From the IMG/VR virus record IMGVR_UViG_3300028797_000159, positions 8,563 through 72,562 of that record: a stretch of DNA of 64,000 nucleotides. One strand, written 5' to 3'. The notes beneath the pieces were generated by a model. It saw only the letters and a list, made by a program, of their open reading frames with translations, had not been told where the DNA came from and made no database searches. A program made the translations under genes and the position numbers. Source of the stretch: a virus. Taxonomy: Duplodnaviria; Caudoviricetes. Shown here in pieces: positions 5,992 through 47,559 of this stretch (position 1 is its first letter; each line of letters opens with the position of its first letter).

Positions 5992-6228
5992 ATGACAGGT
6001 GATAGACTTATTACTCATAATTCCAGTGAGCTTTGGTCGCTGTTAAGTATCATTAAAAATGATTTTCCCAAACTAAAGAAAATGGGTTATTCATTTGCTT
6101 CTGTAGTAGAAGGTCATAATTGTGAATGCTTTGTATATGGTTGGAAACAACGTTCACGCGCAGTGAATGAAGCCATTATGAATGATGGTCTTGCATTCGA
6201 TCTTAAAACTAATAAAAAGTTATTCTAA
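5992..6228 (+). CDS. hypothetical protein
   Basis: AAGGA RBS, first gene after promoter. Confidence 0.7.
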   Translation: MTGDRLITHNSSELWSLLSIIKNDFPKLKKMGYSFASVVEGHNCECFVYGWKQRSRAVNEAIMNDGLAFDLKTNKKLF

Positions 6229-6244
6229 CGCTAAGGGGCTAAAT

Positions 6245-7276
6245 ATGAAACTCGCAAATATTCCATTCGTACAACAGATGATTGATTCTAAATATATTGT
6301 TGTTCGTAAACACCATGAGTTTGATTTATATATTTATAACTATACTAAACAAGCTGCAGCCGAACATGTTTGGAATGAAGCAACTGAACAGTGCCGTGGA
6401 ATTATTTGTGATAAAGAAATGAATGTTGTTGCACGTCCATTTGCAAAATTCTATAACTATGAAGAGCTTTTACAGCAAGGTAAACAAATTCCTGATCTTC
6501 CATTTGAAGTATATGAGAAACTTGATGGTTCATTAGGTATCTTGTATTTTTATAACGGAAAACCGTATATTGCAACTCGTGGGTCATTTGATTCTGCACA
6601 AGCAAAACATGCAACTGATATTTTATATTCAAAATATTCAGATAAATTAGATTTATTAGATAAATCAAAAACTTATTTGTTTGAAATTATTTATAAAGAC
6701 CCAATGACTTCACTTGTTGTGAACTATGGCGATACTGATGATATTTTCCTTATTGCTGTAATTGACACTGAAACTGGTTTTGAAGATGATATTTATGATT
6801 ATAAACACATCTTTAAAACTACTACTAAATATGAATCAGTAAAAGACTATTTATCATTCCGTAAAGATCAGAGTGGATATAACCGAGAGGGCTTTGTAAT
6901 TAAATTCTCAAATGGATTTCGTATGAAATTAAAATTTGAAGAATATTTTAAAGCACATTCAGCTCAATTCCATTTGAGCATTAAATCAGCATATAAAGCT
7001 ATTTTGGAAAATAAAGTTGATAAAGTCCGTTCATATATTGATGAACATTTATCAGAAGAATCAGCTTTATATTTTGATGAATTAGTTAAATCAGTGTATA
7101 CTAAATACAAAGACATTGAAGATGAGTGTTTATCTAAATTTCGTGATGATTTTAAATCACGACAAGAAGCTGCACAATATTTCTTACAATGTAAATATTC
7201 AAAAGTCTTATTCCAATTATATGATGGAAAAGATTATTCGAAATTTATTTGGAAATTAGTTGAAAAAGAATTATAA
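6245..7276 (+). CDS. T4 Rnl1-like RNA ligase
   Basis: YEKLDGS motif I, IATRGSF, EGFVIK, KLKFEEY; start moved to ATG after AAGGGG. Confidence 0.9.
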   Translation: MKLANIPFVQQMIDSKYIVVRKHHEFDLYIYNYTKQAAAEHVWNEATEQCRGIICDKEMNVVARPFAKFYNYEELLQQGKQIPDLPFEVYEKLDGSLGILYFYNGKPYIATRGSFDSAQAKHATDILYSKYSDKLDLLDKSKTYLFEIIYKDPMTSLVVNYGDTDDIFLIAVIDTETGFEDDIYDYKHIFKTTTKYESVKDYLSFRKDQSGYNREGFVIKFSNGFRMKLKFEEYFKAHSAQFHLSIKSAYKAILENKVDKVRSYIDEHLSEESALYFDELVKSVYTKYKDIEDECLSKFRDDFKSRQEAAQYFLQCKYSKVLFQLYDGKDYSKFIWKLVEKEL

Positions 7277-10240: not shown

Positions 10241-10405
10241 TTACATATAATAAGATTTATATATGTAACAGTGATCTTCAGGCATAAACGTTGATGATAT
10301 AACGTTCGCCCAATATGGAAGTTCCGATAAATTCCATAATATCGTATGATTCCGAAGTACAAGGAATCTTAATATTATGGTAACCTATAGTAATATAGGT
10401 AATTT

Positions 10406-10489
10406 GCTCGAATGGCGAAATTGGTAAACGCGACAGACTCAAAATCTGTTATCTTCATTGATTTGAGAGTTCGATTCTCTCTTCGAGCA
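10406..10489 (+). tRNA. trnL: tRNA-Leu(CAA)
   Basis: GCTCGAA/TTCGAGC acceptor; ACAGA-CTCAAAA-TCTGT; long variable arm; GTTCGA T-loop; no encoded CCA. Confidence 0.93.
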
Positions 10490-10493
10490 TTAT

Positions 10494-10564
10494 TCCGTGA
10501 TAGTTTAATAGTAGAACAGTGGACTTTGACTCCGCCAGTATAGGTGCAATTCCTGTTCACGGAA
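10494..10564 (+). tRNA. trnQ: tRNA-Gln(UUG)
   Basis: TCCGTGA/TCACGGA; GTGGA-CTTTGAC-TCCGC; T-loop TGCAATT. Confidence 0.88.
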
Positions 10565-10633
10565 TTTCTTTGAAAAATAAATAAAAGAAAGTTAAATATA
10601 ATGTACATCTTATGTATATTATAATTATAACAT

Positions 10634-10717
10634 GGGTGGTTTACCTAAGTGATCAACAGGTCGAGGCTGTAAACCTCGCGGCTAACGCCTTCGGTGGTTC
10701 GAATCCATCATCGCCCA
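10634..10717 (+). tRNA. trnY: tRNA-Tyr(GUA)
   Basis: CGAGG-CTGTAAA-CCTCG; variable arm; GGTTCGAATCC. Confidence 0.92.
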
Positions 10718-10721
10718 TTAT

Positions 10722-10803
10722 GCGAGAATGGTGAAATTGGTAAACACATAGCACTTAAAATGCTACGCTTTTTAGCTTGAGGGTTCGATTCCCTCTTCTC
10801 GCA
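10722..10803 (+). tRNA. trnL: tRNA-Leu(UAA)
   Basis: GCGAGAA/TTCTCGC; TAGCA-CTTAAAA-TGCTA; GGTTCGATTCC. Confidence 0.93.
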
Positions 10804-10808
10804 CTTAT

Positions 10809-10895
10809 GCTCTTGCAGCGAAATGGGCAAACGCGGCGGTTTTAATCACCGACTGGTGATAAACACCTTGAGGCTTCGAGAACTCTCCAAGAGCA
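10809..10895 (+). tRNA. atypical tRNA-like element (Leu-like, nominal anticodon UAA)
   Basis: perfect GCTCTTG/CAAGAGC acceptor, D arm, CGGT/ACCG anticodon stem, variable arm; poor T stem and pyrimidine at 37. Confidence 0.55.
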
Positions 10896-10900
10896 TTTAT

Positions 10901-11211
10901 AGCGGAGTAGCTCAGCGGTCAGAGCAGTGGTCTTAGACAATATGAGTGCCCAATAAGAAATTATTGGAGTAGAACGTCCCTAATTCAAGAAAACCCTAAA
11001 CAGATAACGCTGTAGGCAATCTTGAGCTAAAACATATAATTTAATTATATGTAAATGTGCAGAGACTATATAGGACGGTGCTAAATTCTTTTTAAGAACA
11101 TGCATAAGAAATAGTCCAGACTACAACAACTATTAATTATTATAGTTGGCTATGGAAACATAGAGTAGTAAGATAAACCATTGGTCGTGAGTTCAATTCT
11201 CACCTTCGCTA
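10901..11211 (+). tRNA. trnI: tRNA-Ile(UAU) interrupted by a group I intron (exons 10901-10934 and 11173-11211)
   Basis: joined exons give AGCGGAG/CTTCGCT acceptor, GTGGT-CTTATAA-ACCAT anticodon arm, GTGAG-TTCAATT-CTCAC T arm. Confidence 0.85.
10935..11172 (+). ncRNA. group I self-splicing intron (IC3-like), 238 nt, ORF-less
   Basis: P AATTCAAGAAAACC, Q AATCTTGAGC, R GTGCAGAGACTA, S AAGAAATAGTCC; P3 CGTCC/GGACG; P7 GACTA/TAGTC; terminal G. Confidence 0.92.
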
Positions 11212-11330
11212 TTTATAAATTTTAGTGGGACAGATGGTTGCCGCCATTTGATGAGAATCTCCAACTCATCTAACCACTAAGTTTTCTGATACGGCAATAT
11301 CAGTTTAATAAAGTTAAAACGGAGGTAACT

Positions 11331-12173
11331 ATGTGTTGCTTTAATAACGAAGAATACGTAAAGCATGATTATGTATGCGAATTCTGTAATAAGAAATTCT
11401 TTACATATAAACATGCATTTGCTTACCATGTTAATAGATGCAGTTGTAATCCTGAAAGTTCACATTACATAAAAGAACACAGCGTAACCTGCATAAAATG
11501 CGGTAATCCGTTTATAGTTAAATGCACTGATTCTCAGTTTGAAAAGGGCGCTTATCGTAAATATTGCTCTACTAAATGCAGTCAATCCAGAGTACTTACT
11601 GAAGAACAAAGAGCTAAAATTTCTAATTCGTTATATACTCATTATGGTACTTCTCCACATGAAGTAGCTTATTGTGTCTGTTGTGGAAAATCATTGTCTA
11701 ATAATAATGAATCTGGTTACTGTATAAACTGTATTCGCACACATAACAAAGAATTTAGAGAGCAATACCCATTGTCAGATGAGGTAAAATCAAAGTTGTC
11801 TGTAGCTGGCAGAAAAGGTGTGGTTAATCAAGCAGAGATAAGACGTTCTAAAAATGAAATTGCTTTTTGCAATTTGTGTGAACAGTACTTTTCCAATGTA
11901 GAACATAATGCGCCAATCTTTAATGGGTGGGACGCTGACGTTATTATACACGATATTAAATATGCAGTGCTATGGAATGGTAAATGGCATTATGAAAAGA
12001 TCACCGCCAATCATTCTGTAGAACAAGTACAGAACAGAGATCGTATTAAAATAAATGAGATCATTAAATATGGTTATACACCATACATTATAAAAGATGT
12101 AGGCAAGCACAAAGAATCATTTGTTAGAGAAGAGTTTGATAAATTTATCAAGCTAGTTTCTACAAAAGATTAG
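11331..12173 (+). CDS. free-standing putative homing endonuclease (Cys-rich zinc fingers + Vsr/DUF559-like PD-(D/E)XK domain)
   Basis: multiple CxxC; WDADVII..KYAVLWNGKWHY..RDRIK..GYTPYIIKD; inside tRNA cluster. Confidence 0.75.
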   Translation: MCCFNNEEYVKHDYVCEFCNKKFFTYKHAFAYHVNRCSCNPESSHYIKEHSVTCIKCGNPFIVKCTDSQFEKGAYRKYCSTKCSQSRVLTEEQRAKISNSLYTHYGTSPHEVAYCVCCGKSLSNNNESGYCINCIRTHNKEFREQYPLSDEVKSKLSVAGRKGVVNQAEIRRSKNEIAFCNLCEQYFSNVEHNAPIFNGWDADVIIHDIKYAVLWNGKWHYEKITANHSVEQVQNRDRIKINEIIKYGYTPYIIKDVGKHKESFVREEFDKFIKLVSTKD

Positions 12174-12203
12174 CGCAACCTGGGATCAGGACTCCGCTAT
12201 TTT

Positions 12204-12291
12204 GGAGAAATGCGATAATGGTTATTCGAGCGGATTGCTAATCCGTCATACAATTTAATTTGTATTGCAGGTTCGAGTCCTGCTTTCTCCG
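12204..12291 (+). tRNA. trnS: tRNA-Ser(GCU)
   Basis: GGAGAAA/TTTCTCC, G discriminator; GCGGA-TTGCTAA-TCCGT; long variable arm. Confidence 0.92.
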
Positions 12292-12362
12292 ATTTATTAT
12301 TCGTAGGGTATAATTATTATGATTATAACTTACATTTCCTACTTATATAATTTGGAGGATTT

Positions 12363-46245: not shown

Positions 46246-47559
46246 ATGATGGAAATAAAAGGGAAATATTGTACTGCAAAAATATATGCTGGCACTATAG
46301 AAGATGGTGTAGTTGAACAGTTAAAAGAAATTGTAAACTGTCCAGCTTTTAAAGATCAGCAGGTTCGATGTATGCCGGACGTTCATGTTGGTGCGGCAGG
46401 TCCATGCGGGTTAGTAGCAACTATTGGTGAATGGGTAAACCCGCAACACGTTGGTGTAGACATTGGCTGTGAAGTTTCAATGGTTTTTCTTAATAAGAAA
46501 ATACCTGAATTTATTTATAAAGAATTTGAGGCAAAAGTAAAAGAGCAAGTTAAATTTGGACAGACTATACACTCAGAATGTAAAGTTGACAAATTAGAAT
46601 TTGTTAAATTTATTCAGGAAGGCTTTGATACGTATCGTGGCATTTGGCCTGATAAGTTATATGAACTTCCGAAAGTAGTAACTATTGAATACATTAACTC
46701 TGTTATTAGTAGAGTTGGCATAAATGAAGAACACTTTTGGCGTTCATTAGGAACTGTCGGTGGTGGAAATCACTATTGGGAATACGGTGAAGGTTCTGAA
46801 GGTAATACTTGTCATTACGCATATTCAGTTCATTGTGGATCTCGTAACTTTGGTTTAAAAGTATGTCATTATTGGACTAAGTTGGCAGAGTGCGGTTTAT
46901 CTAAAAGCGAAATTAAAAGCATTACTGATGCTTTAAAAGTAGAGTATTCAAATACTTACTCATCAATGGAAGGTTTTTCTGAAGCGTTAAAAGAAAAATT
47001 AGATATTGAAAAATCTAAAAAGATACCTGGCTATTTAACAGGTGACTTACTTAGAGGATATCTTTGTGATATGTGTTTTGCTCAATTATATGCAAAATTT
47101 AATCATATTACTATAGAAAAAATTGTGAACGAGATATTAGGTCAATATGGTATACATCAAATAGACAGAATTTCATGTACGCATAATTTTATAGACTTAG
47201 AAGATCATACTCTGCGAAAGTCAGCTATTCGTTCATATAAAGGAGAGCGACTTTTGCTTCCATTCAATATGAAAAGCGGAACTGCAGTGTGTGAAGGCAA
47301 GTCAAATACAGAATGGTTAAATGGTTGTGCTCATGGGGCTGGTAGAAAGATGTCACGTACTATGGCAAAGTCTAAAATTTCTTTAGAAGAGTTTAAACTT
47401 TCAATGGAAGGCGTTTATTCTACTACTGTTTGTGAGTCGACTATAGACGAGTCACCTATGGCTTATAAAGATACTGATGAGATTAAAAGACTAATATCTG
47501 AAACTGCAGATATTAAATTTATGATGTTACCTAAGATAAACATTAAAGCAACTGAATAA
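46246..47559 (+). CDS. rtcB: RtcB RNA ligase
   Basis: MPDVH, VGVDIGC, GGGNHY, HCGSRN, HN, HGAGR, DESPMAYK. Confidence 0.95.
   Translation: MMEIKGKYCTAKIYAGTIEDGVVEQLKEIVNCPAFKDQQVRCMPDVHVGAAGPCGLVATIGEWVNPQHVGVDIGCEVSMVFLNKKIPEFIYKEFEAKVKEQVKFGQTIHSECKVDKLEFVKFIQEGFDTYRGIWPDKLYELPKVVTIEYINSVISRVGINEEHFWRSLGTVGGGNHYWEYGEGSEGNTCHYAYSVHCGSRNFGLKVCHYWTKLAECGLSKSEIKSITDALKVEYSNTYSSMEGFSEALKEKLDIEKSKKIPGYLTGDLLRGYLCDMCFAQLYAKFNHITIEKIVNEILGQYGIHQIDRISCTHNFIDLEDHTLRKSAIRSYKGERLLLPFNMKSGTAVCEGKSNTEWLNGCAHGAGRKMSRTMAKSKISLEEFKLSMEGVYSTTVCESTIDESPMAYKDTDEIKRLISETADIKFMMLPKINIKATE

Follow-up and report, generated by a model that had tools for sequence, protein, structure and literature searches.

A phage tRNA-Ile(UAU) gene probably split within its anticodon by a group I intron of the tRNA-Leu(UAA)/IC3 lineage

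Group I introns that interrupt the anticodon loop of tRNA genes comprise four classical classes, and the introns of T4 and T7-like phages are of the IA2 type. According to a survey of bacterial and archaeal assemblies only, the group I introns that interrupt bacterial tRNA genes form 21 classes (Williams 2020). According to a 2014 review, all phage introns seen until then were located in protein-coding genes (PMC3984707), and one cyanophage intron has been assigned to IA2 (PMC3428280). The tRNA introns published for Lak megaphages are 79-93 nt long and have 'no hit in rfam' (PMC6784885). As for decoding, a tRNA with the anticodon UAU reads AUA without lysidine (PMC3575796, PMC3919564). Our search of the searchable open literature found no report of a group I intron in a phage tRNA gene. 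Here we describe a phage tRNA-Ile(UAU) gene that, in our assessment, is with high probability split between U34 and A35 by a self-splicing intron of the IC3 lineage, most likely a near-neutral mobile passenger. The kind of element, an anticodon-loop group I intron, is known; its host, tRNA-Ile(UAU) in a phage genome, is new.

The window analyzed here is a stretch of 64 kb from a 72.5-kb IMG/VR virus record that is ~34% complete according to CheckV; its GC content is 29.5%, the standard code fits it well, and almost every gene lies on the plus strand. Default ARAGORN finds a tRNA cluster at 10405-12292 that consists of Leu-CAA, Gln-UUG, Tyr-GUA, Leu-UAA and Ser-GCU, and in the gap between Leu-UAA and Ser-GCU, nothing is called either by this program at default settings or by Rfam at the gathering threshold. 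In the intron mode, ARAGORN reports a tRNA-Ile(tat) with a 238-nt intron at 10901-11211 (plus strand), and when 10901-10934 and 11173-11211 are joined, it returns tRNA-Ile(tat) with a normal cloverleaf and the canonical 73 nt, in which U8, A14, G18G19, T54T55C56, A37, A38 and the discriminator A73 are all retained. Exon 1 (10901..10934, plus strand) contributes the 5' strand of the acceptor stem, the D arm, the 5' strand of the anticodon stem and C32, U33 and U34; its assignment draws on the ARAGORN predictions for the spliced and the unspliced sequence, on the identical exon in the metagenome contig L431 and on the intron-less orthologue in a sister phage (L427:3239-3312). Exon 2 (11173..11211, plus strand), with A35, U36, A37, A38, the 3' strand of the anticodon stem, the variable loop, the T arm, the 3' strand of the acceptor stem and the discriminator A, is likewise assigned from ARAGORN, the intron-less L427 orthologue and the L431 exons. 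The predicted splicing of U10934 to A11173 yields the loop CU-UAU-AA and thus the anticodon UAU.

The codon AUA makes up 26% of the isoleucine codons in this AT-rich phage, at a frequency of 20.5 per 1000 codons, and the mature tRNA should read AUA, supplementing the codon supply. That such a decoder would be independent of TilS, as the initial annotation proposed, can be deduced from the literature on UAU anticodons (PMC3575796, PMC3919564). The notion that it is a rarity does not survive comparison with other phages: an uninterrupted tRNA-Ile(tat) is present in 75 of the ~170 phage loci retrieved by anticodon-arm or T-arm patterns, and the exact 15-nt anticodon arm of the window occurs in at least 120 phage loci. 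Phage tRNA-Ile(UAU) is a common, ordinary AUA-codon supplement. Between tRNA-Leu(UAA) and the split gene lies a degenerate type-II tRNA-Leu(UAA)-like gene (10809-10895, plus strand), the acceptor stem of which is good, whereas the T stem is broken and position 37 is U; this gene is called only under relaxed ARAGORN thresholds; its counterpart in the sister phage is called at default. A scan for promoters and terminators gave no signal above chance.

The 238-nt insert (10935..11172, plus strand) is ORF-less and IC3-like, ends with the omega-G at 11172, matches an Rfam model, displays covariation and is absent from the sister orthologue. Its helices were assigned by hand and then tested on MAFFT alignments made without structural information; all of them are on the plus strand. 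P1 pairs CUU at 10932-34 with GAG at 10944-46, with the U10934-G10944 wobble at the 5' splice site, and is followed by the P2 hairpin (10950-56/10961-67) with a GAAA tetraloop. P3 (10975-79/11073-77) encloses P4 (10984-90/11020-26), P5 (10995-98/11013-16), P6 (11032-40/11044-52) and the 5' strand of P7 (11064-68). P7, the pseudoknotted guanosine-binding helix (11064-68/11112-16, GACUA/UAGUC), encloses in turn the 3' strand of P3 and the bipartite P8 (11078-81/11102-05 and 11086-90/11094-98). P9 (11120-24/11165-69, ACUAC/GUAGU) closes P9a (11127-33/11142-48) and P9b (11150-54/11159-63, with a GAAA loop), and the intron ends after P9 with AAG, which includes the omega-G 11172. The intron has GAAA loops at 10957-60 and 11155-58, a short P5 and a total length of 238 nt.

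These helices are borne out by comparison with relatives. In an alignment of the five members of the subfamily, 92.7% of the cells are paired, versus 35-40% with slid partners; 40 of the 69 pairs are changed on both sides, and each helix from P2 to P9b is supported, with double-changed pairs in P3 (5 of 5), P4 (4), P6 (6), P7 (2), the two parts of P8 (3 and 4) and P9 (1). In a broader, 15-member alignment, the paired fraction is 76.8%, versus 64% in shuffles and 37-46% with slid partners, and the outer P8 and P3 are 100% paired, with compensatory changes; for P3, complete pairing and double changes in all five pairs are seen in both alignments. The P1 wobble is UG in all five subfamily sequences. 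The terminal G at 11172, to which the initial annotation had pointed, is invariant in 15 of 15 and 5 of 5 aligned family members. P7 is invariant across the set selected by a conserved 18-mer and appears in the compensated form GAUCA/UGAUC in the tRNA-Leu intron of L427, in which P9 reads ACCAC/GUGGU. The minimum-free-energy fold finds P2, P3, P4, P5, P6, P8, P9a and P9b (z = -3.98, equalled by none of 200 shuffles). The window matches 67 of the 76 near-invariant family columns, and the mismatches that we inspected are exon positions or paired columns. In the majority subtype of the family, we found no convincing pairing for P4, which leaves the canonical P4 of the window unaffected. Comparison by eye with features of the Azoarcus intron picks out motifs resembling CCUAAG...UAUGG in the P8 of relatives and, in a variant form, in that of the window.

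The Rfam model RF00028 (Intron_gpI) matches 10924-11136 over its full length, with E-values of 1.5e-11 in a local search and 4.9e-13 against the 72.5-kb virus record; the check with a group I model that the initial annotation had suggested yields a full-length match at 49.1 bits, 0.9 bit short of the curated gathering cut-off of 50 bits. On the strength of its sequence, the insert is a well-conserved group I intron of the tRNA-Leu(UAA)/IC3 lineage, and with the full core, the covariation and the ARAGORN prediction taken together, the proposal that tRNA-Ile(UAU) is split in the anticodon at 10901-11211 stands. We also observed that the exon segment GUGGUCU (10927-10933) is fully complementary to the conserved AGACUAC (11119-11125) in J7/9-P9, and the minimum-free-energy fold pairs the two. 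This complementarity is probably a coincidence because AGACUAC is retained in relatives with other exons, although the pairing could compete with precursor folding.

Three independent lines of evidence, namely the correspondence of guide and exon, an intron-less orthologue and a second intron-bearing copy in L431, concur on the splice sites U10934/A10935 and G11172/A11173. The intron-less orthologue of the sister phage reads GGTCTTATAAACC (GGTCTT-ATAAACC), that is, the end of exon 1 followed directly by the start of exon 2, and the BLAST identity between the sister and the window breaks off at window position 10935. The predicted ligated exons would read GGUCUUAUAAACC. The spliced anticodon UAU called by the initial annotation accords with CUUAUAA over the predicted junction in the sister orthologue, and a GAU anticodon, which would result from a shifted 3' site, is ruled out by the same gene. 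A 1-nt ambiguity exists at the DNA level (A10935 = A11173), and either choice gives the identical mature tRNA. The insertion between anticodon positions 34 and 35 follows CUU (loop CU-U/AU-AA), and the Leu-UAA relatives, which are interrupted between CUU and AAAA, share this position, in agreement with the proposed tRNA-Leu(UAA)/IC3-type intron at U34/A35.

The guide tracks the exon. CUU/GAG is found in Leu-UAA, Lys-UUU, Arg-UCU and Ile-UAU hosts, and in hosts with the CUCUA loop, that is, amber suppressors with the anticodon CUA, the pairing is CUCU/GGAG and the site is shifted by one base; when two genes of the latter kind (L021, L024) are spliced, they are colinear with the Sup-CTA tRNA of Lak-B2, which is uninterrupted. 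Of the originally proposed guide pairing of GAG(T)GCC with GGTCTT, the CUU/GAG part with its U-G pair holds, but the remainder is rejected: GAGTGC is conserved, TGC included, irrespective of the exon, and GGU of the exon is part of the anticodon stem. In the candidate P10, TAT (10941-10943, plus strand) would form 3 bp with ATA of exon 2; TAT-GAG is kept in L431, but P10 is weak or absent in many relatives, so that it is plausible only. At the P10 position, the Lys hosts L017 and L023 have AA and TTAA, respectively, opposite their TTAA exons.

From the established chemistry of this intron family, the following course of splicing can be proposed. In the precursor, the exons would form the anticodon stem, and C32-U33-U34 would pair with the guide GAG, presenting the U-G wobble at the 5' splice site; free guanosine would attack 3' of U10934 (U34), the omega-G 11172 would next take the same site in P7, and ligation of the exons would release the 73-nt tRNA with the loop CU-UAU-AA.

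Relatives of the locus were reached through homologues of the ORF at 11331-12173, which led to the contigs L427, L428 and L429 of a sister phage that is syntenic with the window, with 91% identity upstream and 83% downstream. Its tRNA cluster consists of Leu-CAA, Gln, Tyr, Leu-UAA, Asn, a Leu-UAA-like gene, Ile-UAU, Leu-CAG, Arg-UCU, the ORF and Ser-GCU. The orthologous tRNA-Ile(UAU) is uninterrupted (L427:3239-3312), and these contigs thus provide the intron-less alleles for which the initial annotation had proposed to search. The tRNA-Ile genes of the window and L427 are 81% identical and differ by four compensatory changes, distributed over all four stems (7-66, 11-24, 28-42, 50-64), and one change of G-U to G-C. 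For tRNA-Leu(UAA), the situation is reversed: the gene of the window has no intron, whereas that of the sister contains a 227-nt intron of the same subfamily. Because the intron resides in Ile rather than Leu-UAA in the window, and the reverse holds in L427, the Ile(UAU) intron looks like a mobile passenger, the presence and absence of which switch between neighboring tRNA genes of sister phages. At L427:2190-2760, an HNH_3 ORF (2267-2743) is located directly upstream of the intron-bearing tRNA-Leu(UAA) and is preceded by a duplicate 5' fragment of this tRNA gene, gcgagaatggtgaaataggtaa; the arrangement looks like a scar of endonuclease-mediated insertion.

A second intron-bearing copy of the gene was identified in the metagenome contig L431, where the exons are 100% identical to those of the window and a 235-nt intron occupies the same place. 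The two introns are 77.5% identical and the flanks ~74%; 16 of the 69 intron pairs are changed on both sides and one on one side only; in P2, double changes affect 5 of 7 pairs, and the GAAA loop is kept. The compensatory changes in the tRNA, the pattern seen in L431 and the 67 shared family columns together say that both the tRNA and the ribozyme fold are under selection. Other searches were negative: the exon-pattern search retrieved no near-identical intron-less allele (best match, 62 of 73); the exact 19-mer CCCTAATTCAAGAAAACCC from the window intron has no match in IMG/VR or metagenomes; the search through the phage RNA ligase found no relatives; and 12 kb of the window gave no megablast match to GenBank phages. 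The 15-mer GTAGTANGATAAACC that spans the 3' junction has at least 116 matches in IMG/VR, and among the matches listed, none has the intron core or the T arm and these are chance matches.

The intron family extends well beyond these phages. The 18-mer AAATAGTCCAGACTACAA, which covers J8/7, the 3' strand of P7 and P9, has matches at 47 IMG/VR loci and in 87 GTDB genome contigs (L336-L422), and also occurs in Lak megaphages. The GTDB contigs belong mostly to gut Bacteroidales, including Prevotellaceae, Cryptobacteroides, Paludibacteraceae and Rikenellaceae (one of them, L396, is the 3.3-Mb chromosome OZ007033.1), and the 18-mer is almost always located in tRNA-Leu(UAA), between CUU and AAAA. Among the resolved GTDB cases, ~55 of 58 are Leu-UAA; two Clostridium MAGs have the intron in Lys-UUU and one contig in a CUA tRNA. 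The hosts in phage contigs are Leu-UAA, many CUA suppressors, Lys-UUU and Arg-UCU, with Ile-UAU limited to the window and L431. The tRNA-Arg(UCU) hosts (L009, L013, L027, L029, L033, L038, L044, L048) are interrupted between CUU and CUAA by ORF-containing introns of ~600 nt, and the tRNA-Lys(UUU) hosts (L017, L023) between CUU and UUAA. The intronic ORFs of several relatives contain CxxC/CPNCH zinc-finger motifs of the HNH kind, as judged by eye.

At an E-value of 0.001, RF00028 has no match in most of the relatives, including L001-L003, L022, L028, L046, L049 and L337; it detects only the window (49 bits) and the closest CUA-host relative, L045 (56 bits), so that for the undetected relatives, homology to the window is established through the alignments. 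Most of this intron family will accordingly escape surveys that rely on Rfam.

Within the Lak megaphages, an amber-suppressor tRNA(CUA) gene of Prevotella phage Lak-B1 (L001:1363-1680, corresponding to MK250020.1 ~412033-412350) is split after U35 by a 245-nt group I intron of the family, with P1 CUCU/GGAG. The match recurs in Lak-B3, B6 and B9, and in Table S2 of Devoto 2019, it is exactly these four genomes (B1, B3, B6 and B9) that have no entry in the second 'Sup' row. At the syntenic place, the other Lak-B genomes have an uninterrupted Sup-CTA, with an identical downstream flank and a different tRNA body.

The ORF at 11331-12173 (plus strand), inside the tRNA cluster, encodes a Cys-rich protein of 280 aa that shows only a weak match to NUMOD3 and otherwise belongs to no Pfam or PHROG family; it has no PDB relative by sequence and no homologue among the intron-encoded ORFs. 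It has ~1330 uncharacterised metagenome homologues and is located in tRNA clusters in the four contig lineages examined. By analogy with SegB of T4, it is possibly a free-standing homing endonuclease. Collaborative homing with the intron was considered and rejected: the window has both the intron and the ORF, L431 has the intron without the ORF, and L427 and L423 have the ORF without the intron. Because the presence of the ORF does not follow the intron, we see no link between the two.

Several alternatives to a near-neutral mobile passenger have to be weighed. The initial annotation favored maturation gated by splicing, and this would be an adaptive timer, with splicing under the control of, for example, GTP, Mg2+ or a protein of the phage or its host, so that the AUA decoder is withheld until a chosen stage of infection. 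The anticodon is indeed complete only once spliced, AUA is frequent in this phage, and two diverged phages have both retained the intron, with compensatory changes. However, a selfish ribozyme is equally expected to conserve its structure, given that it must splice to spare the host gene, and in the syntenic sister phage, this tRNA gene lacks the intron, the lineage also inhabits many unrelated tRNA genes and bacterial chromosomes, and we saw neither a regulatory element nor a partner protein. Given that one sister phage dispenses with the intron and that it moves from one tRNA gene to another, we consider the timer, and with it the gating proposal, distinctly unlikely; the intron is not a purpose-built regulator.

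Decay of the locus, with a dead intron and a tRNA pseudogene, has even less to recommend it. The Rfam score slightly below the cut-off and the degenerate tRNA-Leu-like gene directly upstream, which attests to decay within the cluster, would fit, but the exons of L431 have remained fully identical against the background of diverged intron and flanks, compensatory changes are found in the tRNA stems as well as in the intron helices, the near-invariant family columns are mostly matched, and G18G19, T54-T55-C56, U8 and A14 are all kept; we judge decay to be very unlikely. Removal of the insert by proteins, with an endonuclease and a phage ligase in place of a ribozyme, seems hardly credible, even if the phage does encode RtcB (46246-47559, plus strand) and a T4 Rnl1-like RNA ligase (6182-7276, plus strand). 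The group I core is complete, the U-G wobble at -1 and the invariant terminal G are in place, and the insert shows no bulge-helix-bulge motif. Rnl1 and Pnk of T4 repair tRNAs cut by host anticodon nucleases, and by analogy, the two ligases suggest a tRNA-repair toolkit and pressure from such nucleases, which accounts for their presence.

Because CUU at the end of exon 1 is the sole requirement of this mobile passenger, the intron has most likely spread in phages from tRNA-Leu(UAA) into other tRNAs with U34. A bolder extension, which we regard as unlikely, is that the phage IC3 lineage is an anticodon-loop generalist that uses a guide of 3-4 nt (GAG or GGAG) in at least five tRNA species and has been co-opted in some phages as a checkpoint on decoder supply. 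If so, the decoders subject to the checkpoint would read AUA in this phage and stop codons in recoded phages, Lak among them, and the timing or conditions of splicing would shape the translation of late genes.

The effect of the intron on phage biology is likely to be small. IC3 ribozymes, as this locus and its relatives show, do occur in phage tRNA genes, in contrast to the statements in PMC3984707 and PMC6784885. Since default tRNA finders and the Rfam threshold miss this gene, phage tRNA inventories and the analyses of codon supply are systematically incomplete. Furthermore, the sister orthologues with and without the intron, together with the differing neighboring tRNA genes, are natural material for studying how a group I intron gains sites that share only CUU.

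Compared with phage introns in protein-coding genes, such as those of T4 td, nrdB and sunY, Twort and Bastille, which are self-splicing, mobile and often accompanied by homing endonucleases, the intron described here is expected to be of the same general nature but differs in the host gene, which is a tRNA, and in the subgroup, which appears to be IC3 rather than IA2. With the 'enigmatic' introns of Lak megaphages (Devoto 2019, PMC6784885), it shares the location in phage tRNA genes; the Lak group I introns found here are at loci other than those published. In Mycoplasma mobile and in TilS-less Bacillus subtilis, tRNA-Ile(UAU) similarly reads AUA through UAU without lysidine, but these genes are cellular, uninterrupted and served by a co-adapted IleRS (PMC3575796, PMC3919564), whereas the gene in the window belongs to a phage and is split.

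Among tRNA introns, that of the Azoarcus tRNA-Ile(CAU), 'Ile2.5Ug' (PMC13168695, Williams 2020), is likewise an IC3-type ribozyme, located in the anticodon loop of an AUA-reading tRNA. It is inserted after the third anticodon base of a bacterial CAU tRNA that needs lysidine, whereas the intron in the window is inside the UAU anticodon of a phage gene. The mapping logic that we applied (U at -1, omega G, regular exons) is that of the Williams classes, and the chromosomal setting in Bacteroidales, between CUU and AAAA, corresponds to the classical 'Leu.3Ug' of that survey (Williams 2020). The closest counterpart is the bacterial and chloroplast tRNA-Leu(UAA) intron. The two have in common the U34/A35 site, the 3-bp P1 CUU/GAG with the U-G wobble, the terminal G, the small, ORF-less build and the GAAA loops on P2 and P9, and the family of the window intron resides, as does the tRNA-Leu(UAA) intron, mostly in tRNA-Leu(UAA) genes, namely those of Bacteroidales and phages. 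The window differs from this counterpart in the host tRNA-Ile(UAU), an exon 2 that starts with AUAA rather than AAAA, a candidate P10 guide TAT, the phage genome and a diverged sequence that scores 49 bits in Rfam.
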